DNA of 9,973 nucleotides from a virus (lineage: Duplodnaviria > Heunggongvirae > Uroviricota > Caudoviricetes): the IMG/VR virus record IMGVR_UViG_2645727991_000023, positions 1 to 9,973 of that record; one strand, given 5' to 3'. The position numbers and the translations under genes were made by a program. The notes under the pieces are model-generated. The model worked only from the letters and a program-made list of their open reading frames with translations. It did no database searches and had not been told where the DNA came from. This document shows, piece by piece, positions 1-9,973 of this stretch. Position 1 is the first letter of the stretch, and every line of letters starts with the position of its first letter.

Positions 1-771
1 TCACTTTTCCGATACAACACGGCGGGAAGAATCAGTAATCTGTCGAACAATATCCCGGTGCTTGTTCAGCTCCCGCAGCGCGGCGCAGACTCGCTCCCAC
101 TTCTGAACATCACTTTTCGCCCTGCGCAGCGCCAGGTTTGCCCTGCGAAGGGACGGAAAAATCAGCTCATCTGCTTGCGTTTCGGTAAACGATGGCAACG
201 GCTGCACAATGTCCGCCACAGTTTCTGTTTTAATTTCTTCCTGTGTTGCGGCTTCCCGGACTGGTAACGCAGCACCTGCTGGCTGAGGAAAGGCCTTACC
301 ATCATTTTCCGTTACCGGCGCGGCTTTCGGATCTGCTGGTAAATTACCCACCGGCATGCAGTAACGAAATTTACCGTTCTGATTTACGCGTGCCAGGCGC
401 CCCGTTGCTGTTACGACCGCCAACGTGGAAGCAACCTTGCGAATGCTAACACCGAACTTATCCGCCAGTTCCTCACACGTTTTAGCCCCATCCTGACCGA
501 TAAACTCAATCATCATGTCTGCGGTAACTTTTTGTTCGACCTCCCCGGTCAGCATATCCTGTGCTTCAGATTTTACTGGCCGCTCTTCGGTTACCCGGGA
601 TTCACCTTCGCCAGCCAGAAACCAGGTGTGACCAGTTTTATCAACGACGCCATTTCTTTTGAGTTCCCACAGCTCGTTGACAGCCTCTTCACGACTGATT
701 CCAAGGCGAGCTGCCACCACATGTGAAGAGGCTTTTTTCAGTGCTTTCAGTGCGTCAGATACGGTTTCCAT
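1..771 (-). CDS. Prophage protein of unknown function, DUF1627-like, with two winged-helix-like segments
   Basis: The 256-aa ORF has GGAGGAAA about 8 nt upstream of its ATG at 771. Two segments resemble wHTH modules (AARLGISREEAVNELWELKRNGVV and CEELADKFGVSIRKVASTLAVV). It sits directly downstream of the DnaC-like gene, as in many lambdoid prophages. Confidence 0.6.
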   Translation of the reverse strand: METVSDALKALKKASSHVVAARLGISREEAVNELWELKRNGVVDKTGHTWFLAGEGESRVTEERPVKSEAQDMLTGEVEQKVTADMMIEFIGQDGAKTCEELADKFGVSIRKVASTLAVVTATGRLARVNQNGKFRYCMPVGNLPADPKAAPVTENDGKAFPQPAGAALPVREAATQEEIKTETVADIVQPLPSFTETQADELIFPSLRRANLALRRAKSDVQKWERVCAALRELNKHRDIVRQITDSSRRVVSEK

Positions 772-792
772 TAAAATTTCCTCCGGACAAAA

Positions 793-1539
793 TTACTTCA
801 CAACCCTCATATTGCTGACATTTGGACGCCAGCTATCCCAGTTAAACGTCACCCATCGACCACCGTTCATGGTCATGCGGTCCATAATCCTCTCACCAAG
901 AAGTGTACTCATTGCGGCATGATTCAGGTTTGTTAACATCCCGACACTGCACAGTGATGCTGTCCGGCGATCAATTATCTGGTGCAATACCACCTGCTCG
1001 TTTTTCGTCTCCCGCTGAACGCCTATTTCATCCAGGACCAGCAAATCAACACCGCAAAGCTCCTGTAAAAATTTTTCCCCGGATTTGCCGTTGTCGTAGC
1101 TGTCATGCAACACGCTCATGACATCAGACACGGTGACGATAATCACGCTGCGCCCCTTCACCATCAGCCGGTTACCCATCGCCGCTGCAAGGTGATTTTT
1201 CCCGGTGCCGGTTTTACCGCTGAACACAAAATTCGTGCACCCGGTCATCAGTTCGTCAGCTATGGATTTGGCCTGGCTCAGCGCGTATTTTTGCCCGTCG
1301 TTCTGCACCTGATAATTTGCAAACGAGCATTTGCTGTGCAGAGGCTGGATGCCCGAACGATTCAGGATTTTTTCCACCCGCAACTGGCGATTCTGGCGGT
1401 TAATCTCCTCGCTGCGTTTTCGTCCTTCAGCAAGTTGCCATTCCCGCCACTCCTCCACCGTCCGGTACGGTGGAACCGCCCCCTGTGGTGCAAGTCTGCG
1501 AATACGTTCAAGAACCCCAACTGCCGCAATGTTTTTCAT
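793..1539 (-). CDS. DnaC/IstB-like AAA+ replicative helicase loader (lambda P analog)
   Basis: The 248-aa ORF has Walker A GKTGTGKN and Walker B LLVLDEIG. Its ATG at 1539 lies 6 nt after the stop of the upstream O-like gene, which suggests translational coupling. Confidence 0.9.
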   Translation of the reverse strand: MKNIAAVGVLERIRRLAPQGAVPPYRTVEEWREWQLAEGRKRSEEINRQNRQLRVEKILNRSGIQPLHSKCSFANYQVQNDGQKYALSQAKSIADELMTGCTNFVFSGKTGTGKNHLAAAMGNRLMVKGRSVIIVTVSDVMSVLHDSYDNGKSGEKFLQELCGVDLLVLDEIGVQRETKNEQVVLHQIIDRRTASLCSVGMLTNLNHAAMSTLLGERIMDRMTMNGGRWVTFNWDSWRPNVSNMRVVK

Positions 1540-1545
1540 GACACG

Positions 1546-2628
1546 TCACCCCCTGAATCCCGGCGGTATTTCAGTGTCCGGTTCAGAAATGTGATTCACG
1601 CAACGCTGGTTGTTCGTGCCGCTTACCGGGAGCAACCAGGGGTTTTCAAAATTCCGGTCCGGCCCAAAAAACGTCGTCGCTCGCTGAACAAATTCCGTTC
1701 CCGCTTTCCCGGTCGCCGCCAGGTATCTCGCGTAACGCCTCACACCATCCAGCATGGTCTCTGGTGGCACCCCCTCGCGCAATCTGGCCTTCCAGGCACT
1801 GAATGCGGATTTCTTCGGGTTTGCTCCGGCACGCAACGGGTACTCCCGCCAGACCTGTTCGAACACATCCGGATAATCCACTCGTCCCACAGACTGCCCG
1901 GTGTTTTCCGGGACTACCCGATCGGCTTCCCGCTGAATGGCGGAATCGGCTTCAGGCTGCTGCAGTTGGTGTGATTGCTCCGGCCTTGCGGTCATCACCT
2001 GCTGCACAGCGCCCGAATCGGCTTTCAGCGCATACGCTGAATCGGCTTCCGGTGTCGTGCCTGCTGGCTGACCAAGATTGACGGTCTGAACATCCCCTGC
2101 CTGGTTCGTGGCGTTTTTTACGCCATGGACCATAGTGTTTTGATCTTCTTGATCTGTATCTTTATCTGTATCTTTATCTGTATCTTTATCTGTCGTGACT
2201 CGTCGTGACATGTGCGTGACATTTCGTGACGCGCCGTGACAATCGCCATTTTGTTCCCACTTTCTTTCCCTCTCTCGCTGCGCCCTCTTGCGCTCTGCAG
2301 GAGATTTTGCGGTTTGCGAAATATTGCCGTTGTCCTCTTTAAGCACCTGGCGTTTTTCCCATCCAGTGATTAAATCACCATCAAGTACCCGCCCCTGCAT
2401 CGTCTGCAAAATTGAATCAATTACCTCTTCTGTCACGTCGAGCGCACTTGCCAAATCTTCTGTCGTGACATCAATGTGACCTCGCGTGACATTTCGTGAC
2501 GCGCTCACCAGGAGGTGGATATACACTGCCATCACTGTTGCAATTGGCTGCCCTGACACCCTGGCAATTGTTCGCCACTTAGGGTCATTTGGCATGTCAT
2601 GCCATAATCTGAGCCAGGCGTTAGCCAT
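1546..2628 (-). CDS. Replication initiator, lambda O / YdaU-like
   Basis: The long ORF sits immediately upstream of the helicase loader. Its N-terminus (WLRLWHDMPNDPKW...) is typical of prophage replication proteins. The gene contains iteron-like repeats and an AT-rich tandem repeat, as lambda O does. I prefer the ATG at 2628, which has AGAGG 5 nt upstream, over the GTG at 2634 used in the ORF track. Confidence 0.75.
   Translation of the reverse strand: MANAWLRLWHDMPNDPKWRTIARVSGQPIATVMAVYIHLLVSASRNVTRGHIDVTTEDLASALDVTEEVIDSILQTMQGRVLDGDLITGWEKRQVLKEDNGNISQTAKSPAERKRAQRERERKWEQNGDCHGASRNVTHMSRRVTTDKDTDKDTDKDTDQEDQNTMVHGVKNATNQAGDVQTVNLGQPAGTTPEADSAYALKADSGAVQQVMTARPEQSHQLQQPEADSAIQREADRVVPENTGQSVGRVDYPDVFEQVWREYPLRAGANPKKSAFSAWKARLREGVPPETMLDGVRRYARYLAATGKAGTEFVQRATTFFGPDRNFENPWLLPVSGTNNQRCVNHISEPDTEIPPGFRG
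2152..2193. repeat. Tandem 12-bp repeat ATCTGTATCTTT, 3.5 copies, in frame (encodes DKDT repeats on the minus strand)
   Basis: Exact copies lie at 2152-2163, 2164-2175 and 2176-2187, with a half copy at 2188-2193. The repeat is AT-rich and directly abuts the first CGTGAC cluster. Confidence 0.9.
2194..2240. repeat. Iteron-like cluster 1: five CGTGAC hexamers phased at 10-11 bp (putative origin element)
   Basis: CGTGAC starts at 2194, 2204, 2215, 2225 and 2235. The cluster contains the 21-bp block GCGTGACATTTCGTGACGCGC at 2214-2234. Confidence 0.5.
2464..2504. repeat. Iteron-like cluster 2: CGTGAC/TGTGAC hexamers phased at 10-11 bp (putative origin element)
   Basis: Hexamers start at 2464, 2475 (TGTGAC), 2485 and 2495. 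The same exact 21-bp block occurs at 2484-2504, exactly 270 bp from the copy in cluster 1. An inverted GTCACG lies at 2432-2437. Confidence 0.5.
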
Positions 2629-2699
2629 ACTCACCTCTTCTGATACCGAATCTTTTTACTCACGAGTTGCCGGAAGCGATTCGATATGGCTATTATCAC

Positions 2700-3125
2700 T
2701 CAATGCACTGCCACAGCATTTCCTGCCGGGCCACCACGGTTCATCTGATTGAAACCGGCGATTGCCACCGCGACAAAATCATCAGCGTCTCTCACCAGTC
2801 GCTCCCGCGTCTCCACCAGCTCCCGAAAATAAGCTGAACTGTGGCTGCGCATTCTGGCCACCAGCAAAGGTGGCATTGCCTTTTCGATCGCTGGTAACAA
2901 CGCCAGAATTTTTTCAACTGCATCAGGGGTGTCTTTCTCTACCCAGCGGAAAATTTTCTGGGTATTGCGAGCCAGGGCTTCCGGATGGCTGTCGTCATGC
3001 AGTTCTGGGAACGTCATACCCAGTTCAAAATAAGCCCTGGTTATTTCAGCTGCCGGAACTTTTTCACCGTCCGGATGCGCCCAGGCATTCATCGCCATGC
3101 GGATGTGTTCATGCTTGATTTTCAT
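2700..3125 (-). CDS. YdaT-family protein (functional CII analog of Rac/CP-933P-type prophages)
   Basis: The 141-aa ORF starts MKIKHEHI, like the Rac YdaT I recall, and has a similar length. It lies directly downstream of the Cro-like gene and overlaps it by 17 nt. Confidence 0.75.
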   Translation of the reverse strand: MKIKHEHIRMAMNAWAHPDGEKVPAAEITRAYFELGMTFPELHDDSHPEALARNTQKIFRWVEKDTPDAVEKILALLPAIEKAMPPLLVARMRSHSSAYFRELVETRERLVRDADDFVAVAIAGFNQMNRGGPAGNAVAVH

Positions 3126-3390
3126 GAATCAAGCTCCTAGAAAGTGGTTGTGTTAACGTTTTGGTATCTTCCAGCTCGGGCCAAATATTCATCCAATCAA
3201 AAGGCCTTAGTTGCTGACGTGTAACTTCACCATTACTGGCTCGCTCAATAAGGACACATAACGATGCCCCTAACACTTGACCTTTACTCAATGCCTTTCT
3301 TAGATAACCGATGCTGGTACCACACTCGCATGCAAACATACGCTGTTCATCTGACGAAAGAGAATTGAGAAATATTCTTAATTCTTCCAT
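3109..3390 (-). CDS. Cro-like HTH regulator, YdaS/DicC family
   Basis: The 93-aa ORF has AAGGAG (3401-3396) 5 nt upstream of its ATG. The HTH-like core is CGTSIGYLRKALSKGQ followed by IERASNGEVTRQQLRP, which is typical of YdaS-type proteins. It is divergent from the repressor gene. Confidence 0.8.
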   Translation of the reverse strand: MEELRIFLNSLSSDEQRMFACECGTSIGYLRKALSKGQVLGASLCVLIERASNGEVTRQQLRPFDWMNIWPELEDTKTLTQPLSRSLIHENQA

Positions 3391-3415
3391 AGCTACTCCT
3401 TAGTAAACACAGCAA

Positions 3416-3443
3416 AGAATACCTACAGGTAAACAAAAGTCAA
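3416..3443 (-). promoter_or_regulatory. PR-like promoter for the Cro-like operon
   Basis: On the minus strand, -35 TTGACT (3443-3438) is followed by a 16-nt spacer and -10 TATTCT (3421-3416). The operator at 3420-3431 overlaps the -10 and the spacer. Confidence 0.5.
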
Positions 3444-3497
3444 TACCCACAGGTTGTTTACCTTGCAGTAATCGCATCTATTATTTACCTATGGACA
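3420..3497. promoter_or_regulatory. OR-like operator cluster of 12-bp pseudo-palindromes, TACCY-N2-RGGTA type
   Basis: The sites are TACCTACAGGTA (3420-3431), TACCCACAGGTT (3444-3455), the weaker TACCTTGCAGTA (3459-3470) and the weaker TACCTATGGACA (3486-3497), which overlaps the repressor ATG. The first two share AATACCYACAGGT and are 24 bp apart. Confidence 0.55.
3454..3484 (+). promoter_or_regulatory. PRM-like promoter for the repressor gene, possibly giving a leaderless mRNA
   Basis: The -10 TATTAT (3479-3484) ends 6 nt before the ATG at 3491. Only weak -35 candidates exist (TTGTTT/GTTTAC, 3454-3461). There is no Shine-Dalgarno sequence before the ATG. Confidence 0.35.
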
Positions 3498-3910
3498 AAT
3501 ATGAATTTAGACGACAGCAACTCATCAAAATTCGTGATGAGAAATGCGATGGTAAAGCGGTTAACGTGGCCAGAAAGATCGGGCGCGAGCCTTCTTATGT
3601 ATCAAGAATGTTGTACCCAGAGGGGAAAAAGGGAAAAAAACGGATCGCTGATGATATGGTGGAGATTATCGAAGAGTCCTTTGGGTTACCCCGGGGATGG
3701 ATGGATGGTATCGTTTCATCATCAACGAACACAGCCTCCAGTTATGAAACAAGGGTTCTAACGCCACGACAACGTATTTTTTTAGATCTCTTAGACGAAC
3801 TGCCAGAAAGTGAAGCGGATAACTTATTAAAAACTCTTGAAGAGAAAAAACAGTATTACAATATGATCTACGAAGAAATCCGTAAAAAGAAAGCACAAAA
3901 CGCATCATAG
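3491..3910 (+). CDS. Prophage repressor, DicA-type (N-terminal HTH, C-terminal helical domain, no S24 peptidase domain)
   Basis: The 139-aa ORF is divergent from the Cro-like gene. The HTH-like segment is VNVARKIGREPSYVSRML. The C-terminal segment LTPRQRIFLDLLDELPESEADNLLKTLEE resembles the DicA C-terminus (...LELFNALPESEQ...) as I recall it. No Ala-Gly/Ser-Lys autocleavage module is present. Confidence 0.85.
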   Translation: MDKYEFRRQQLIKIRDEKCDGKAVNVARKIGREPSYVSRMLYPEGKKGKKRIADDMVEIIEESFGLPRGWMDGIVSSSTNTASSYETRVLTPRQRIFLDLLDELPESEADNLLKTLEEKKQYYNMIYEEIRKKKAQNAS

Positions 3911-3950
3911 CTCACCAAACAACTAGTCACCAGTTAAGACACCGCAAAAA

Positions 3951-3993
3951 GTTACCCATGGGTATTTACTTTTTAAATACCTATGGGTATCCT
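3951..3993 (+). promoter_or_regulatory. Candidate early-left (dicB-operon) promoter
   Basis: -35 TTTACT (3965-3970) is followed by a 17-nt spacer and -10 TATCCT (3988-3993), bracketed and overlapped by the two operators. An alternative reading is GTTACC (3951-3956) with TAAATA (3974-3979). This is a motif-level call only. Confidence 0.4.
3953..3989. promoter_or_regulatory. OL-like operator pair
   Basis: A perfect palindrome TACCCATGGGTA (3953-3964) and a near-perfect TACCTATGGGTA (3978-3989) lie 25 bp apart. They have the same half-sites as the OR cluster. Confidence 0.55.
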
Positions 3994-4314
3994 TCTTTTC
4001 ATACCAACTCACCCCGCTCCACAGAATGCAGGGCAATACTTCGAGTTACCAGGCAGTGGTCAGGGGTTAAGTAGCCAGCCCGAGGCGTAAGAACATGACG
4101 GCAGGGTTCAACTTTAATAACTATGCAGCAGGTTTTTGTTCCGCTACCCCAGCGTTAAGGGGAAACAGAGGATTTCTCAGTGGGCGAAGTCAAACATCAG
4201 AATGGAAGGCATCCAGGGATCAGCAAAGAAACAGCGATGGCGCTTTATATTGATATCAGCGCCATTGCCGGACAGGTAAGAATTATCAGAGCGGTAACTA
4301 AGCGGTATGCGCCT

Positions 4315-4515
4315 TTACTTCAGAAAGTCTCTGGTGAGTGCACCGAAGATATTGTCAACGATTTCGTCATCAAACTGCGAGGACTCATCTTCAGTTACAA
4401 GGTGACCACAATTTTTGCAGATGGCTCCCGCGAAACTGTCAGAGCCATGCGGTTTAAAGGATGTGTCAAAGACTTCGCCGCCACATTCTGGGCAAGAAAA
4501 CTTGATTGTATTCAT
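4315..4515 (-). CDS. Small acidic zinc-ribbon protein (66 aa), function unknown, antisense to the early-left operon
   Basis: The protein begins MNTIKFSCPECGG and continues through CKNCG, giving two CxxC pairs 21 residues apart. GAGAGG (4530-4525) lies 9 nt upstream of the ATG at 4515. Its codon usage is better than that of the in-register plus-strand ORF. The track's TTG start at 4521 is unlikely. Confidence 0.55.
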   Translation of the reverse strand: MNTIKFSCPECGGEVFDTSFKPHGSDSFAGAICKNCGHLVTEDESSQFDDEIVDNIFGALTRDFLK

Positions 4516-4607
4516 AACCAATTTCCTCTCGAGTAACAGACCCCTCAGAGGATACCACCTCGCCTGACGTGGTTAAAAGCAGGCAACGCTAACCACAAGG
4601 AGCCGAC

Positions 4608-4826
4608 ATGCAGAAACGAGAACCCGTCATCATCGCGCCAGACTATACCGATGATGAACTTTATGAGTGGATGCACCAGAAAATTAAGGCAGCGCAGGAC
4701 CTGAAATGGGCCAATGAAGCCAGGGCTAAGCAAGCTGAAAATCTGTCCGCTCTGGAGCAGGATATCACCAATCTGGAAAAAGCAGCGGCATTAAGCATTG
4801 CCAGAATGATTACATACCCGCGTTAA
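4608..4826 (+). CDS. ydfC: YdfC-like small protein of the dicB operon
   Basis: The 72-aa ORF has AAGGAG (4597-4602) 5 nt upstream of its ATG. Its length and position, the last CDS before the dicF spacer, match ydfC in K-12 Qin. I recognise it mainly by synteny. Confidence 0.7.
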   Translation: MQKREPVIIAPDYTDDELYEWMHQKIKAAQDLKWANEARAKQAENLSALEQDITNLEKAAALSIARMITYPR

Positions 4827-5166
4827 TAGCTAACCAACGAAGCTAAGGTTGGTAATTAAGGAGTTCTCCACGGGTGAGGTGGAGTGCGTGCGCCGGACAC
4901 GGGTGAGCATCCGGCACTGACAGTTTACTGAAAGGATATTTCCCTGAAAAGTCAGGGCATAACGCGAAAGCGCACGGCGAGGTAGCTGGTTCATAGATAG
5001 CCTGTCGTTAAATTTTCGTCGACCGTGCGCTTCCGGTTGTGGCACTCCGCGAAATGGCGCGGCGGTAAGTATGGCGGGGTTATTCCTTCCCCGTTGAGGA
5101 CACCGGGTTGTCAGGTTGACCATACGCTTAAGTGACAACCCCGCTGCAACGCCCTCTGTTATCAAT
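4827..5166 (+). other. Hairpin-dense untranslated spacer (upstream part of the dicF precursor)
   Basis: No plus-strand ORF here has both a start codon and an RBS. The stems are 4833-4838/4848-4853, 4866-4871/4879-4884, 4892-4897/4910-4915, 4942-4947/4952-4957, 4970-4980/5019-5030, 5047-5051/5058-5062, 5075-5079/5089-5093 and a 9-bp stem at 5105-5113/5133-5141. Confidence 0.5.
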
Positions 5167-5219
5167 TTTCTGGTGACGTTTGGCGGTATCAGTTTTACTC
5201 CGTGGCTGCTCTGCCGCCC
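5167..5219 (+). ncRNA. dicF: DicF small RNA (Hfq-dependent sRNA that inhibits ftsZ translation)
   Basis: The sequence TTTCTGGTGACGTTTGGCGGTATCAGTTTTACTCCGTGGCTGCTCTGCCGCCC matches the 53-nt K-12 DicF sequence as I recall it, apart from about one base. It is followed by T5. It sits between ydfC-like and dicB homologs, 174 nt upstream of dicB, as in Qin. Confidence 0.85.
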
Positions 5220-5224
5220 TTTTT
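5182..5224 (+). terminator. Intrinsic terminator forming the DicF 3' end
   Basis: GGCGG (5182-5186) pairs with CCGCC (5214-5218), with inner CAG/CTG pairs (5190-5192/5207-5209). An alternative local hairpin is GGCTGC-tct-GCCGCC. A TTTTT run follows at 5220-5224. Confidence 0.65.
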
Positions 5225-5226
5225 AA

Positions 5227-5378
5227 AGTGAATTTTGTGATGTGGTGAATGCGGCTGAGCGCACGCGGAACAGTTAAAACCAAAAACAGTGTTATGGGTG
5301 GATTCTCTGTATCCGGCGTTAATTGTTAACTGGTTAACGTCACCTGGAGGCACCAGGCACTGCATCACAAAATTCATT
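5227..5378 (+). promoter_or_regulatory. Long-range 21-bp RNA helix enclosing 110 nt between the dicF terminator and the dicB RBS (candidate RNase III site or translational control element)
   Basis: Positions 5227-5247 pair with 5358-5378. The core is the 12-bp perfect pairing AATTTTGTGATG/CATCACAAAATT, extended on both sides, with 3 G-U pairs in total. The 3' arm ends 3 nt before the dicB SD GAGGA (5382-5386). Confidence 0.5.
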
Positions 5379-5393
5379 GTTGAGGACGCGATA

Positions 5394-5582
5394 ATGGAAA
5401 AGTTATCACGTAATGCCAGCACGTCTGAACTTCGTTTCGAAATTGGCGTTATCACTGGAGACAAAACATTTATTGAAGACGCCATTAAGCAGAGAAAACT
5501 CGAGCAGGACCTGTTAAATGAAGTATGCATTCCTTCAATGCTGGCTCGTCTGGACCTGCTGCAAAAAGGATATAAACAATGA
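5394..5582 (+). CDS. dicB: DicB cell-division inhibitor (MinC activator)
   Basis: The 62-aa ORF starts at the ATG at 5394, with GAGGA 7 nt upstream. The segments FEIGV...EDAI..RK.E..LLN..CI.SMLARL align with K-12 DicB (62 aa) as I recall it. The longer 97-aa track ORF has no RBS. Confidence 0.9.
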   Translation: MEKLSRNASTSELRFEIGVITGDKTFIEDAIKQRKLEQDLLNEVCIPSMLARLDLLQKGYKQ

Positions 5583-5770
5583 ATACAACATTTGCACTCG
5601 TTCTGACAGTTTATCTTGTTTCCGGCGAATCTCTTGAGCTGGTGACTGGCTTATACGGTTCAATGAAAGAATGCATGGCTGCAGCAGCAGAACAAAAAAT
5701 TCCCGGTAACTGTTATCCGGTAGATAAAACTACTCACACTAATAATAACGAAATACCGGCAGGACTTTAA
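5579..5770 (+). CDS. ydfD: YdfD-like small membrane/lysis protein
   Basis: The 63-aa ORF overlaps dicB through ATGA. It has an N-terminal hydrophobic helix (FALVLTVYLVSG) and the conserved tail EQKIPGNCYPVDK...EIPAGL, as in K-12 YdfD. Confidence 0.85.
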   Translation: MNTTFALVLTVYLVSGESLELVTGLYGSMKECMAAAAEQKIPGNCYPVDKTTHTNNNEIPAGL

Positions 5771-5863
5771 AACAGCACCGTAATTAATATCCGGTTTCAA
5801 TTAAAAATGCCAGCAATGGCAGGGATTCGTTCACCCTGAAATCTGTAATGAGGTTAAAACAAA

Positions 5864-7738
5864 ATGAGTAAAGTCTTTATTTGCGCCGCCATTCCGGACG
5901 AACAGGCAATAAAGGAAGAAGGTGCAGTCGCTGTAGCTACTGCCATTGAAGCCGGTGATGAACGTCGCGCCCGCGCAAAATTTCACTGGCAATTCCTGGA
6001 ACATTATCCGGCTGCTCAGGACTGCGCTTATAAATTTCTTGTCTGCGAGGATAAACCCGGTATACCCCGCCCTGCCCTCGATTCCTGGGATGCTGAATAT
6101 ATGCAGGAAAACCGCTGGGATGAGGCGTCTGCTTCCTTTGTCCCGGTTGAGACTGAATCAGATCCGATGAACGTCACTTTTGACAAGCTGGCCCCTGAAG
6201 TACAGAACGCTGTCATGGTTAAGTTCGACACATGTGAAAACATCACCGTTGATATGGCGATTGACGCGCAGGAATTACTGCAAGAAGACGTGGCTACCTT
6301 TGACGGGCACATCGTTGAAGCACTGATGAAAACGCCTGAAATTAACGCTATGTATCCGGAACGCAAACTGTTCGCTATCGGATGGGTTAAACACAAATGT
6401 AAGCCGGGTACCAAATGGCCCGAAATTCAGGCTGAATTACGTAACTGGAAAAAACGGCAGGACGCAGAGCGCAAAGAGACTGGAAAATACACGTCTGTTG
6501 TTGATCTTGCCCGCGCCAAAGCCAACCGACAGCACACTGAAAACCCAGCAGAAAAAATCCCTCCTGTAACTGCCGCCATTCATCGCGAATACAAGCAGAC
6601 ATGGAAAACCCTGGGCAGGGAGCTGGCCTACTATCTCTGGCCTGGTGATGCGGATGCCGGAAACATTGACGGCAGCATCCTTCGCTGGGCTAAAAATGAA
6701 GTTATCGCCAGAGATCGCGAAGACTGGAAGCGCATCTCCGCATCAATGCGCAAACAACCTGATGCGCTTCGCTACAGCCGCCAGACTATTTTTGGCCTTG
6801 TCCGTGAACGCCCGATCGACATTCACAAAGATCCCGTGGCACTGAACAAATACATCACTGAATACCTGACTACAAAGGGCGTGTTTGAAGATGACGAAGG
6901 AACAAATCAGGGCACAGCTAATACTCTCTCGTCGCCAGTACCAGAAACTGACGCAGTGGAAACGGCAATTCAGGACAACGAAAAAACCGAATGCAAAGTG
7001 GAAGTCGAATCATCTGTAGAGCGTGAGGGGCCGTTCTACTTCCTCTTCAGCGACAAGGATGGCGAAAAATACGGTCGTGCAAACAAACTTTCTGGTCTGA
7101 ATAAGGCGCTGGCTGCAGGGGCTACTGAAATCACGAAAGAAGAATATTTTGCCCGCAAAAACGGTACATACTCAGGTTCACAACAAAATACTGGTGCATC
7201 TGACACGATCGCACAACCGGAGCCGGTAAAAGTTACCGCTGACGAAGTAAACAAAATTATGCAGGCAGCCAATATCAGCCAGCCTGACGCCGATAAGTTG
7301 CTTGCTGTATCACGTGGTGAATTTGTTGCAGGGATTAGCGACCCGAATGATCCGAAATGGGTGAAGGAGATTGAAACCCGCGATTCAGTGAATCAGAACC
7401 AGCAAGAAACGGAACAGAACGACCAGAAAGCGGAACAAAACAGCCCAAATGCGTTACAAAACGAGCCAGAAACGAAACAATCCGAACCAGTAGTGCAACA
7501 GGAACCGGAAAAAGTCTGCACCGCCTGCGGTCAGAGCGGTGGCGGCAACTGCCCCGATTGTGGCGCTGTCTGGGCAACGCAACATACCAGGAAACATTCG
7601 ATGAAGAGAATCAGGTTGAAGCTCAGGAGAATGATCCGGAGGAAATGGAAGGCGCTGAACATCCACACAAGGAGAACACTGGCGGCAATCAGCATCACGC
7701 CAGCGATAGTGAAACTGGCGAGGCGGCAGATCCCTTAA
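5864..7738 (+). CDS. ORF as written: YdfE-like N-terminal region with a Q/E-rich linker and a CxxC-N9-CxxC zinc ribbon. The last ~55 codons are probably out of frame.
   Basis: GAGG (5850-5853) lies upstream of the ATG at 5864. The N-terminus MSKVFICAAIPDE...FHWQFLEHYPAAQDCAYKF resembles K-12 YdfE and the N-termini of prophage proteins annotated as exodeoxyribonuclease VIII, as I recall them. The zinc ribbon CTACG...CPDCG lies at 7517-7561. Confidence 0.6.
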   Translation: MSKVFICAAIPDEQAIKEEGAVAVATAIEAGDERRARAKFHWQFLEHYPAAQDCAYKFLVCEDKPGIPRPALDSWDAEYMQENRWDEASASFVPVETESDPMNVTFDKLAPEVQNAVMVKFDTCENITVDMAIDAQELLQEDVATFDGHIVEALMKTPEINAMYPERKLFAIGWVKHKCKPGTKWPEIQAELRNWKKRQDAERKETGKYTSVVDLARAKANRQHTENPAEKIPPVTAAIHREYKQTWKTLGRELAYYLWPGDADAGNIDGSILRWAKNEVIARDREDWKRISASMRKQPDALRYSRQTIFGLVRERPIDIHKDPVALNKYITEYLTTKGVFEDDEGTNQGTANTLSSPVPETDAVETAIQDNEKTECKVEVESSVEREGPFYFLFSDKDGEKYGRANKLSGLNKALAAGATEITKEEYFARKNGTYSGSQQNTGASDTIAQPEPVKVTADEVNKIMQAANISQPDADKLLAVSRGEFVAGISDPNDPKWVKEIETRDSVNQNQQETEQNDQKAEQNSPNALQNEPETKQSEPVVQQEPEKVCTACGQSGGGNCPDCGAVWATQHTRKHSMKRIRLKLRRMIRRKWKALNIHTRRTLAAISITPAIVKLARRQIP

Positions 7739-8337
7739 TTAAGGTGAATGGTCATCACAATCTCACATCCACCAGCAGAGCGGGGATTCATCTGATGATC
7801 GACATTGAAACCATGGGAAAAAATCCCAATGCCGCGATTATCTCAATAGGCGCAATATTTTTCGATCCACAAACCGGAGATATGGGACCGGAATTTAGCA
7901 AGACCATCGATCTGGATACTGCTGGCGGAGTTATTGATCGTGACGTCATTAAATGGTGGCTGAAGCAATCACGTGAAGCGCAGTCTGCCATTCTGACCGA
8001 TGAAATCCCGTTAGATGATGCACTACTGCAATTGCGGGAATTTATCGCCGAAAACTCCGGTGAATTTTTTGTTCAGGTCTGGGGAAATGGAGCCAACTTC
8101 GACAACGTGATTTTACGCCGTTCATACGAACGGCAGGGGATCCCCTGCCCCTGGCACTACCACAACGATCGCGATGTACGCACAATCGTTGAGCTAGGGA
8201 AAGCCATAGACTTCGATGCCAGAACAGCTATCCCATTCGAAGGTGAGCGCCACAATGCACTTGATGACGCCCGTTACCAGGCAAAATACGTTTCAGCTAT
8301 CTGGCAAAAACTGATCCCGAGTCAGGCTGATTTTTAA
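7558..8337 (+). CDS. ORF as written: DEDDh (DnaQ-like) 3'-5' exonuclease domain protein. The track's TTG start at 7558 is doubtful, and a possible independent start is the ATG at 7795.
   Basis: The Exo I motif is MIDIETMG, Exo II is WGNGANFD and Exo III is HNALDDARY. The ATG at 7795 has GGGGA 8 nt upstream and lies 57 nt after the upstream ORF's stop. That start would give a 180-aa stand-alone exonuclease. Confidence 0.6.
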   Translation: MWRCLGNATYQETFDEENQVEAQENDPEEMEGAEHPHKENTGGNQHHASDSETGEAADPLIKVNGHHNLTSTSRAGIHLMIDIETMGKNPNAAIISIGAIFFDPQTGDMGPEFSKTIDLDTAGGVIDRDVIKWWLKQSREAQSAILTDEIPLDDALLQLREFIAENSGEFFVQVWGNGANFDNVILRRSYERQGIPCPWHYHNDRDVRTIVELGKAIDFDARTAIPFEGERHNALDDARYQAKYVSAIWQKLIPSQADF

Positions 8338-8406
8338 TGTTCAACCATCGCCGGTTGTGACTGGTATTCTGCAACCGGCCCTCATCTGATGTAAGAGATA
8401 AAAGCG

Positions 8407-8658
8407 ATGAGCGAAGTAATCATGATTGTCTCTCCCGGTAAATGGGTATCTGAAGAACAGCTAATTGCACTGAAAGGAATAAAAAAGGGAACGCTAAAAA
8501 AAGCCAGAGAAAAATCGTTTATGGAAGGAAGGGAATATAAGCATGTCGCCCATGACTGTATGCCATGGGATAACAGCCCATGCTTTTACAACCTGGAAGA
8601 AATAGATCGCTGGATTGAACGCCAGGCATCAGCAAGACCAAGGCGTCATCTTACTTGA
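8407..8658 (+). CDS. Excisionase-like protein (DUF1233-type Xis)
   Basis: The 83-aa ORF lies immediately upstream of int on the same strand. The segments PGKWVSEEQLIALKGIKKGTLKKAREKSFMEGREYKHV and EEIDRWIE resemble the putative excisionases of this integrase family. An alternative start is the ATG at 8422. Confidence 0.7.
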   Translation: MSEVIMIVSPGKWVSEEQLIALKGIKKGTLKKAREKSFMEGREYKHVAHDCMPWDNSPCFYNLEEIDRWIERQASARPRRHLT

Positions 8659-8677
8659 GTAAAAACAATACTAACCA

Positions 8678-9973
8678 ATGAGAGAAGCTGAAATGAAATA
8701 TCCGACAGGCGTGGAAAACCATGGTGGGAAATTACGTATCTGGTTTGTTTATAAAGGTGTAAGAGTCCGGGAAAATCTTGGGGTTCCTGACACAGCAAAA
8801 AACAGGCGCATTGCAGGTGAGCTACGCGCCTCTGTTTGTTACGCAATAAAAACTGGCGCTTTCGACTATGCAAAACAGTTTCCCGCCTCACACAATCTGG
8901 AAAAATTTGGTGAGGCCCGACAAGATTTAACCATAAAAGAACTGGCTGAAAAATTTCTGGCACTGAAAGAAACTGAAGTCGCAAAAACGTCACTCAACAC
9001 GTACCGTGCCGTCATCAAAAATATTCTGAGCATAATCGGTGAAAAAAATCTTGCATCATCGATTAATAAAGAAAAATTGCTGGCGGTACGTAAAGAGTTA
9101 CTGACTGGATACCAGATCCCCAAAAGTAACTATATTGTTACACAACCAGGGAGATCGGCTGTTACCGTAAATAATTACATGACAAATCTTTACGCCGTGT
9201 TCCAGTTTGGTGTTGATAACGGTTATCTGGCAGACAATCCATTTAAGGGGATCTCACCATTAAAGGAGTCGAGAACCATCCCGGATCCACTTTCGCGGGA
9301 GGAGTTTATCCGCCTTATTGACGCGTGCAGAAATCAGCAAGCCAAAAATTTATGGTGTGTTTCCGTTTATACTGGGATTCGCCCTGGTGAACTCTGTGCG
9401 CTTGGATGGGAAGATATAGTTCTGAAAAATGGAACAATGATAATCAGAAGAAATCTGGCAAAAGACCGTTTTACAGTACCAAAAACACAGGCGGGAACCA
9501 ATCGTGTGATTCACCTTATTAAGCCCGCAATCGACGCTCTCCGGAGTCAGATGGCACTAACGAGACTGAGTAAAGAGCATATCATCGATGTTCACCTCAG
9601 AGAATTCGGCAGAACAGAGAAACAAAAATGTACCTTTGTTTTTCAACCTGAAGTGTCAGCGAAAGTAAAAAATTATGGTGACCATTTTACCGTTGACTCA
9701 ATAAGGCAGATGTGGGACGCAGCGGTAAAGCGTGCCGGAATCCGCCATCGCAAATCGTATCAGTCGAGACACACTTATGCCTGCTGGTCGTTAACAGCAG
9801 GAGCTAACCCGGCATTCATTGCAAACCAGATGGGCCATGCAGATGCGCAAATGGTGTTTCAGGTGTACGGGAAATGGATGTCAGACAATAATAATGCGCA
9901 GGTAACGCTGTTAAATACACAGTTAAGCGAGTTTGCCCCAACCATGCCCCATAACGAAGCGATGAAAAGTTAA
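8678..9973 (+). CDS. Tyrosine recombinase, phage integrase (Rac/Qin IntR/IntQ-like, with an N-terminal arm-binding domain)
   Basis: The N-terminus reads KYPTGVENHGGKLRIWFVYKGVRVRE (DUF3596-type arm domain). The catalytic motifs are YTGIRPGE, SRHTYA and MGHAD, with a tyrosine in VYGKW. The probable true start is the ATG at 8693 (MKYPTG, 426 aa). The stop codon is at the window edge. Confidence 0.95.
   Translation: MREAEMKYPTGVENHGGKLRIWFVYKGVRVRENLGVPDTAKNRRIAGELRASVCYAIKTGAFDYAKQFPASHNLEKFGEARQDLTIKELAEKFLALKETEVAKTSLNTYRAVIKNILSIIGEKNLASSINKEKLLAVRKELLTGYQIPKSNYIVTQPGRSAVTVNNYMTNLYAVFQFGVDNGYLADNPFKGISPLKESRTIPDPLSREEFIRLIDACRNQQAKNLWCVSVYTGIRPGELCALGWEDIVLKNGTMIIRRNLAKDRFTVPKTQAGTNRVIHLIKPAIDALRSQMALTRLSKEHIIDVHLREFGRTEKQKCTFVFQPEVSAKVKNYGDHFTVDSIRQMWDAAVKRAGIRHRKSYQSRHTYACWSLTAGANPAFIANQMGHADAQMVFQVYGKWMSDNNNAQVTLLNTQLSEFAPTMPHNEAMKS

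Follow-up and report, generated by a model that had tools for sequence, protein, structure and literature searches.

A small zinc-ribbon gene nested antisense within the first open reading frame of a dicB-type early-left operon: a candidate conserved dual-coding locus

The stretch of DNA analyzed here (the window) comprises 9,973 nucleotides (nt) of a Caudoviricetes genome (IMG/VR record IMGVR_UViG_2645727991_000023, positions 1 to 9,973). It contains a pair of open reading frames (ORFs) that occupy the same DNA on opposite strands: a 66-amino-acid ORF with zinc-ribbon cysteine pairs, which runs against the polarity of the surrounding operon, and a 99-amino-acid ORF in the sense orientation (Table 1). 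The minus-strand ORF had been picked out, with its CPEC-N21-CKNC motif and acidic tail, in a first-pass annotation made from the letters alone; it is present as described there, and a RefSeq gene, a family score and signs of selection now speak for it. It extends from an ATG at 4515–4513 to a TAA stop at 4317–4315, and an alternative TTG start two codons upstream would give 68 amino acids. The encoded protein, MNTIKFSCPECGGEVFDTSFKPHGSDSFAGAICKNCGHLVTEDESSQFDDEIVDNIFGALTRDFLK, carries its cysteines at C8/C11 and C33/C36, separated by a 21-residue gap and followed by the acidic stretch TEDESSQFDDEIVDN; its conserved core is GSDSFAGAxCxNCGHxVTEDE.

The sense ORF comes first after the early-left promoter (pL) and matches phrog_21318 in PHROGs with an E value of 2e-66. 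When read from a GTG at 4180 it comprises 118 amino acids, and no constraint on the 4180–4236 extension was detected among Escherichia coli alleles. The ORF is intact in 99 of 99 related loci examined and in every divergent lineage. In the divergent relatives its Shine-Dalgarno sequence (SD) and ATG are conserved, the start lying ∼25–30 codons beyond the zinc-ribbon stop, and its end always falls within ∼20 nt of the zinc-ribbon ATG. The first-pass annotation had staked the minus-strand call against homologs that conserve the plus-strand 118-amino-acid frame instead. The plus-strand frame is indeed conserved, but not in place of the other, as both are kept.

The two ORFs are treated differently by different resources. 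GenBank phage records and PHROGs annotate the sense ORF and not the zinc-ribbon ORF. RefSeq calls the zinc-ribbon ORF, and not the sense ORF, in a near relative of the window, and calls the 99-amino-acid sense ORF instead (WP_001240336) in an O157:H7 genome with a broken zinc-ribbon frame, an annotation pattern also seen in O145 and O111 genomes. RefSeq thus calls either strand depending on one base, and in this conflict with the phage resources each side probably misses a gene.

Table 1. Positions of genes and signals in and around the overlapping ORFs (window coordinates)
Feature	Position	Strand	Remarks
YdaT-like gene	2700–3125	minus	
cro-like gene	3109–3390	minus	
139-amino-acid repressor, phrog_5736	3491–3910	plus	
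Early-left promoter region	3953–3993	plus	operator-like palindromes around -35/-10
Hairpin and T-tract, candidate intrinsic terminator	4224–4268	minus	conserved stem
Sense ORF, 99 amino acids, phrog_21318	4237–4536	plus	encloses the whole zinc-ribbon ORF on the other strand
Zinc-ribbon ORF, 66 amino acids	4315–4515	minus	NF047912 / ECs_2282 family
SD GAGAGGA for the zinc-ribbon ORF	4524–4530	minus	read from the sequence
Conserved 37-bp promoter-like block	4549–4585	minus	conservation and re-use with other cargo
ydfC	4608–4826	plus	
DicF RNA	5168–5219	plus	
dicB	5394–5582	plus	

The zinc-ribbon protein scored 57.4 bits (E = 1e-15, profile positions 1–56 of 60) on the NCBIfam model NF047912, named "ECs_2282 family putative zinc-binding protein," for which the curated cutoff is 37 bits, and the earlier statement that it could be placed in no named family is outdated. 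It is a member of this family by score, by its two CxxC pairs ∼21 residues apart and by a size within the range of roughly 60–75 amino acids; it shares with the family the CPxCG...CxxCGH pattern and the (S/D)DF-GA-C and T-x-D-D core and differs by its acidic tail. An identical 201-nt gene with the same coordinates carries the family name in RefSeq (WP_024182289, strain 14EC001). NF047912 is a name only, with no function attached, and its search output makes no mention of an opposite-strand ORF; zinc binding by its members is putative, as the family name has it. There is no solved structure for any member, and neither the zinc-ribbon protein nor the sense-ORF protein matched any Pfam family above threshold.

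Among 1.8 billion representative proteins searched, a zinc-ribbon profile matched 68 clusters, mostly of stand-alone proteins of 63–75 amino acids, and all 10 clusters that were tested scored above the NF047912 cutoff (50–69 bits). The family consensus reads CPxCG..F....P.S.DDF.GAxCxxCGHxITxDDI, followed in most members by a basic amphipathic C-terminal helix; the acidic tail is confined to the enterobacterial subfamily. Because a basic helix replaces the acidic tail in most members, the earlier suggestion that the protein might be a DNA mimic is weakened. One distant stand-alone member, P0067, lies at 170–373 of a GC-rich 1.3-kb metagenomic contig (L109), where the opposite strand holds a 137-codon open stretch in the same phase that extends past the zinc-ribbon stop and may be due to chance in GC-rich DNA; as the single case of an antisense ORF opposite a stand-alone member, it is uninformative.

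Two further resemblances were noted. Lar (RalR) is likewise a small prophage zinc ribbon of the CPxCG...CxxC type and of similar size, and Lar of Rac lies in the sense orientation within its early operon. The zinc-ribbon protein scored 15.9 bits on the Lar model TIGR03655, and other NF047912 members reached 19–21.5 bits, below the Lar cutoffs (39.6 bits for TIGR03655 and 28.6 bits for PF14354), and they are not assigned to Lar; the sub-threshold matches nevertheless recur across the NF047912 family (E values of 2e-4 to 1e-2; 16–21 bits). The PADLOC candidate defence protein PDC-M14A was matched in the N-terminal part of its 152-position profile only (E values: window protein, 1.5e-3; P0067, 2e-6; HK639 protein, 7e-6). 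Both resemblances are weak and are taken as leads, not as assignments. The YnfU family of zinc-binding proteins (NF038384) was rejected (13.9 bits against a cutoff of 36), and the sole matches from a scan of species-representative genomes, two spurious CPEC hits in Bacteroidota and in an archaeal metagenome-assembled genome, were kept out of the statistics.

Relatives with 60–70% identity in Citrobacter, Klebsiella and Enterobacter all comprise exactly 66 codons, and the four cysteines and the GSDSFAG...CGHxVTEDE core are invariant among them. A translated search of phage genomes detected more distant relatives (29–38% identity) in HK639, in Enterobacter phages and in the Klebsiella phages ST899-OXA48phi17.1, ST974-OXA48phi18.2 and 2b LV-2017. 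In each annotated record among these, the gene called at the site is on the opposite strand and an intact zinc-ribbon ORF lies inside it, with four cysteines and 63–70 amino acids when counted from the ATG nearest the first cysteine. The sense ORF of HK639 is HK639_45 (115 amino acids), the first gene after pL and a putL-like RNA; the other annotated sense ORFs encode 95, 102 and 155 amino acids. PHROGs lists the Klebsiella ST899-type sense ORF as phrog_29546, which is matched more weakly by the 2b LV-2017 ORF (E = 8e-12) and by HK639_45 (E = 3e-4). Overall, the pair is kept together down to ∼30% identity, and over this range the four cysteines, the ATG and a length of 63–73 codons persist in the zinc-ribbon ORF. 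The module has four settings: it directly follows pL or, in the rightward operon, cro, and elsewhere it follows ant or the tape-measure gene. In each setting the sense ORF runs with its neighbors and the zinc-ribbon ORF against them.

Two of these loci have features of their own. In an Enterobacter hormaechei prophage (locus L009), the zinc-ribbon gene (4100–4300) lies directly downstream of a SieB-family superinfection-exclusion gene (3323–3823); the two are co-oriented, and both are antisense to the early-left operon. In Klebsiella phage 2b LV-2017 the module sits in the tail-gene cluster, a classic site of moron insertion, and the 155-amino-acid ORF (L112, 2486–2953) matches phrog_21096 over residues 1–60 and phrog_29546 over residues 69–152; this ORF may be two genes fused by annotation.

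We compared the ratio of nonsynonymous to synonymous change (pN/pS) between frames, both in the overlap and in the sense codons outside it. Among ten divergent sequences, the zinc-ribbon frame had the lowest pN/pS of all six frames in the overlap (0.34; sense frame, 0.56), and variable columns peaked at zinc-ribbon third codon positions. In the 24 non-overlapping sense codons the sense frame was the best of six (pN/pS of 0.40), with variable columns at 15, 11 and 22 of the 24 first, second and third codon positions, respectively (p = 0.003). Phylogenetically independent pairs gave pN/pS values of 0.37 for the sense frame outside the overlap (p = 2e-5) and, within the overlap, of 0.32 for the zinc-ribbon frame (p = 1e-11) and 0.60 for the sense frame (p = 0.003). 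Across analyses the zinc-ribbon frame remained at 0.30–0.41, with a synonymous excess at p of about 1e-11. In the HK639 clade the non-overlapping sense codons had a pN/pS of 0.43, compared with 1.6 and 6.3 in the other frames (Fisher p = 0.009), and the overlap gave 0.28 in the zinc-ribbon frame and 0.83 in the sense frame. A second minus-strand ORF, or read-through past the zinc-ribbon stop, was rejected as a source of the period-3 signal, as the other minus-strand frames contain stops.

Simulations were then set against these values. Selection on the sense frame alone yielded a zinc-ribbon pN/pS of ∼0.9 compared with the observed 0.32, and this model was rejected. Selection on the zinc-ribbon frame alone yielded a sense pN/pS of 0.9–1.3, and the value of 0.67 observed for six independent pairs was reached in 0–1.75% of 400 simulations under four parameter settings. 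Selection on both frames reproduced both values. The codons TTA, CTA and TCA, which in the zinc-ribbon frame are stop codons on the opposite strand, were seen once among 39 distinct Leu/Ser codon states of the zinc-ribbon ORFs compared with 7.5 expected (P = 0.0026), and this sole instance is the stop of the sense ORF itself. The reverse test on the sense frame likewise gave 0 stop-making codon states compared with 5.3 expected (P = 0.0027). In a set of 30 E. coli alleles, 27 changes were silent for the zinc-ribbon protein and missense for the sense protein, compared with 11.2 expected (a 2.4-fold excess), whereas 11 changes were silent for the sense protein and missense for the zinc-ribbon protein, compared with 12.1 expected (p = 0.005).

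Overall, these patterns argue strongly for purifying selection on the zinc-ribbon frame and moderately for purifying selection on the sense frame, as would be expected of an antisense pair. Because the sense frame has start signals of its own, coding-type substitutions in its non-overlapping part and an avoidance of stops, an overlapping antisense pair describes the locus better than a single minus-strand gene does. We regard it as very probable that the zinc-ribbon ORF is a real gene and consider, with odds clearly better than even, that both strands are coding.

The zinc-ribbon ORF is flanked by expression signals in its own orientation. The GAGG core of its SD (4528–4525) ends 9 nt before the ATG; one group of relatives conserves AAGGA/AGAGGA at this site, and a second group, with a different upstream region, has a perfect AAGGAGGT SD. 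Approximately 34 nt upstream of the ATG lies the promoter-like block, in which a -35 element TTAACC (4576–4571) is followed by a 16-nt spacer and an extended -10 element TGG-TATCCT (4557–4549), so that transcription of the antisense unit is predicted to start near 4541–4543. The block hardly varies among relatives with just 65–75% identity in their coding regions, and promoter function is inferred from these features. A program-called minus-strand promoter at 4532–4505 was rejected in favor of the conserved block at 4549–4576, as it overlies the start codon. On the other side of the gene, a hairpin of 9–12 bp is found 50–80 nt downstream of the zinc-ribbon stop; in the window its arms (4268–4258 and 4244–4234) are followed on the minus strand by TGTTTCTTTG at 4233–4224. 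This T-run is present on the minus strand only, with none on the plus strand. Twelve relatives keep a 9-bp stem, in which 2 pairs show compensatory changes. The earlier proposal that the gene resembles a moron fits these promoter-like and terminator-like signals, by which the gene is flanked, at the level of sequence, in the way a moron would be.

Of 5,426 complete E. coli genomes, 937 (17%) carry the full zinc-ribbon module, and ∼1,090 others have the 37-bp block without it, at 100% identity. In two of the block-only genomes, which were examined (L115 2001–2037; L116 2001–2037), the block again lies ∼34 nt upstream of minus-strand ORFs, here unrelated ones: a 106-amino-acid predicted membrane protein and, in phage mEp460, a 66-amino-acid acidic protein without cysteine pairs. 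These findings suggest that the block is a shared antisense promoter with exchangeable cargo genes and that it marks a hotspot between the immunity region and dicF/dicB.

The order of genes around the pair is repressor, pL, sense ORF with the nested zinc-ribbon ORF on the opposite strand, ydfC, DicF, dicB, exonuclease, xis and int; the plus-strand genes after dicB include a DUF1482 gene ahead of the exonuclease. In the corresponding place K-12 Qin carries ydfA and ydfB, as the first-pass annotation had stated and a comparison confirmed, and dicBp of Qin lies upstream of ydfA (PMC10448788), which provides an analogy for pL of the window. The candidate early-left promoter placed at ∼3990 in that annotation is supported by a promoter-like TTTACT (3965–3970)-N17-TATCCT (3988–3993), bracketed by the palindromes TACCCATGGGTA (3953–3964) and TACCTATGGGTA (3978–3989), and the minus-strand gene does appear to face a dicB-type promoter. 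A program call of a terminator at 3953–3989 was rejected as being this pair of operator palindromes. The palindrome TACCyAyrGGTA occurs in five copies (3418–3431, 3442–3455, ∼3483–3494, 3953–3964 and 3978–3989), of which those at 3418–3431 and 3442–3455 fall between the divergent repressor and cro-like genes; the five are putative rightward and leftward operators of the 139-amino-acid repressor. The repressor had no Pfam helix-turn-helix match, and only its C-terminus resembles DicA (24 bits compared with a cutoff of 101). From the pL operators to 5202 the plus strand showed no terminator-like site. The 240-nt leader, aligned with the annotated HK639 putL region, showed no similarity and no Put-like antiterminator RNA, and DicF was the only Rfam match.

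Two side observations concern the downstream genes. A nearly identical prophage carries, at ∼4830–4994 on the minus strand between ydfC and DicF, a RefSeq 54-amino-acid hypothetical protein, which would be a second gene against operon polarity. In addition, a RecE/ExoVIII-like exonuclease at 5864–8337 is split in the window into overlapping ORFs of 624 amino acids (5864–7738) and 259 amino acids (7558–8337), and it is a single 2,475-nt gene in a closely related prophage of strain 14EC001; the split is a frameshift, reflecting either a pseudogene or a sequencing error.

We propose, with a probability of roughly 60%, that the first gene of the early-left operon encloses a compact antisense cassette and that the locus is probably dual-coding, with reciprocal expression in lysogeny and lytic growth. 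The cassette would consist of promoter, SD and ATG, 66 codons and hairpin terminator, ∼320 nt in total, and ∼200 bp of shared DNA would encode proteins on both strands. In the lysogen the repressor would shut off pL, and the antisense promoter would give rise to a zinc-ribbon mRNA that ends at the hairpin, short of pL. Upon induction, strong transcription from pL would run head-on through the cassette to express the sense ORF and then ydfC, DicF and dicB, and would silence the zinc-ribbon gene by transcriptional interference, RNA pairing or both. The four-cysteine zinc ribbon and its helix would most likely act by binding a partner, and the protein may be a lysogen-expressed accessory factor for exclusion, defence or restriction modulation; this last role is a guess from the location, the SieB neighbor and the weak profile matches. 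The antirepressor, exclusion and DNA-mimic roles suggested in the first-pass annotation are likewise guesses. We infer the transcription, translation, reciprocity and biochemical role of the pair; gene structure, family membership, selection in both frames and the conservation of flanking signals and of orientation were observed.

Several observations weigh against this proposal. The selection statistics rest on ∼12–16 related sequences and simple substitution models, and among E. coli alleles no constraint on the sense frame is detectable, the ratio of nonsynonymous to synonymous rates (omega) being 1.11 within the overlap and a nonsignificant 0.66 beyond it. The GC-rich arms of the hairpin coincide with a conserved motif at the N-terminus of the sense ORF, (I/V)D(A/T/I)S..(I/V)..Q, so that some of the conservation of this motif may reflect constraint on the nucleic acid. 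AlphaFold2 gave the zinc-ribbon protein a predicted local distance difference test score (pLDDT) of 54.6, too low for a fold search; for the sense ORF the best of five models reached 72.8 (the others, 53–62), and a fold search with this helix-helix-hairpin-helix model returned no specific match. The promoter-like block matches the consensus at 8 of 12 positions plus the TG element. The zinc-ribbon frame also carries nonsense alleles: E14* (GAA to TAA, a change of F to L in the sense frame) in 18 of 80 IMG/VR loci (L066–L087), verified in one O157:H7 prophage of the PPompW type (OK1; L117 1508–1807), and E44* in one further locus. Because these alleles occur, loss of the zinc-ribbon gene is taken to be tolerated. 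Such tolerance is common among prophage accessory genes. Within the library searched, literature searches by locus tag and by peptide strings found no mention of either protein sequence or of the locus tag, and no expression data.

With these points in mind, we considered that the zinc-ribbon gene alone may be functional and that the plus-strand ORF is a functionless by-product, open by chance or because an untranslated stretch of 300 nt at the head of an operon would invite Rho-dependent polarity. That the zinc-ribbon frame clearly dominates the overlap, that omega of the sense frame is ∼1.1 in E. coli alleles and that the sense protein has no known-function family or fold match are all in keeping with such a by-product, as is the coincidence of its N-terminal motif with the hairpin. 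The phase of the overlap (codon position 2 opposite position 2) also makes openness easy to keep, in that just TTA, CTA and TCA create a stop on the opposite strand. However, these three codons are themselves avoided in the zinc-ribbon ORFs, the sense pN/pS in the overlap is below that simulated under zinc-ribbon-only selection, and the sense ORF always ends ∼20 nt or closer to the zinc-ribbon ATG. Moreover, two independent clades show coding-type evolution of the 22–24 non-overlapping codons (pN/pS of 0.37 and 0.43), which is not explained by a need for openness alone. We therefore judge a functionless sense ORF to be unlikely.

Alternatively, RNA may be the key product of the antisense unit, a cis-antisense transcript that damps leaky or induced expression of toxic dicF and dicB, with the peptide secondary, in the manner of OOP RNA against cII or of a noncontiguous-operon or excludon arrangement. 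Genes of the downstream type (dicB, dicF and kil) are indeed toxic (PMC10448788), and the antisense unit is convergent with, and lies fully within, the pL transcript. In addition, because the same promoter block is re-used with unrelated cargo at the same site in other prophages, antisense transcription may itself be what is conserved there. What an RNA-only role would not preserve is the four cysteines and the frame of 63–73 codons; the zinc-ribbon ORF is under protein-level constraint, and the family also occurs elsewhere, after the tape-measure gene, after ant and as stand-alone proteins. An RNA as the key product is hence improbable in our view, and RNA and protein roles of the antisense unit are not mutually exclusive. 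Finally, it is very improbable that the plus-strand ORF is the sole gene and the 66-codon ORF its shadow, mis-annotated by the RefSeq family model, for even though GenBank phage records and PHROGs carry the plus-strand ORF only, this ORF is never broken while the zinc-ribbon frame has nonsense alleles, and AlphaFold2 confidence is higher for it, plus-only selection does not reproduce the zinc-ribbon pN/pS (simulated, ∼0.9; observed, 0.32), zinc-ribbon-silent changes are 2.4-fold over-represented among E. coli alleles, the cysteines, ATG and length persist to ∼30% identity, strong SDs such as AAGGAGGT fall outside the plus-strand ORF, and 68 clusters of stand-alone proteins of ∼65 amino acids exist, of which 10 of 10 tested pass the NF047912 cutoff.

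Our preferred reading, a nested and probably dual-coding cassette with reciprocal expression, has its closest functional precedent in Pseudomonas phage Fc02, in which olg1, a small lysogenic-strand gene by the immunity region, is antisense to early lytic gene 10; plasmid constructs were shown to yield both products, and each of the two excludes superinfecting phages (PMC9936078). As in the window, a lysogenic-strand gene overlaps an early lytic gene in antisense. The two systems differ in that Fc02 is Mu-like and olg1 shares the repressor transcript, whereas the window gene has a portable promoter-like block, and no sequence relationship is apparent. Expression and exclusion were demonstrated for Fc02 and are conjectural for the window pair.

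In excludons and noncontiguous operons, reverse genes generally lie between the genes of the operon, or the overlaps involve untranslated regions; in the window, by contrast, the reverse gene sits inside a coding ORF. The noncontiguous operon is described as an operon that contains an opposite-strand gene with mutually exclusive expression (PMC11034616). The window does have a reverse gene inside an operon, and from the promoter positions the operon transcript would overlap this gene with reciprocal regulation. The overlapping ORFs of enterohemorrhagic E. coli (EHEC) are mostly young and lineage-restricted, lie inside old genes and come with expression data and little comparative evidence. The window reverses this pattern, in that its evidence is comparative, with both partners conserved across several genera to ∼30% identity. 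It resembles the EHEC genes nog1, laoB, asa, ano and pop (PMC9927249, PMC5960689, PMC7103648) in that a protein-coding ORF is fully embedded antisense in another ORF of an E. coli genome.

More tentatively, and at somewhat less than even odds, the pair may represent a ∼400-bp mobile module of temperate phages. One strand would supply the lysogen with a zinc-ribbon protein, driven by a promoter of its own, and the other strand, as part of the lytic operon, would supply a protein of ∼95–115 amino acids. The two proteins would have evolved together over the range from E. coli dicB-type prophages to HK639 and the Klebsiella phages and would act as an either/or switch. An exclusion/counter-exclusion pair or a toxin/antidote pair would be examples of such a switch.

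Whether functional proteins are encoded on both strands of a single bacterial or phage locus is still disputed. Most proposed antisense pairs come with expression data and weak evolutionary support. Here the evidence is of the opposite kind, in that the two frames and their separate start signals are retained together across genera and four genomic settings. The locus is short, readily manipulated and common, occurring in 17% of complete E. coli genomes, and the natural E14* allele separates the frames, as it breaks the zinc-ribbon frame and changes one sense residue. The promoter block with exchangeable cargo appears to mark a hotspot of lysogen-expressed accessory genes beside toxic dicF/dicB, which is relevant to searches for prophage defence and exclusion functions. 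Overall, the comparative evidence makes the locus a strong candidate, well suited to experiment, for a conserved antisense module with two coding strands. If the tentative ∼400-bp two-strand switch is real, no other antisense dual-coding locus so far described in bacteria or their phages would be conserved as deeply.

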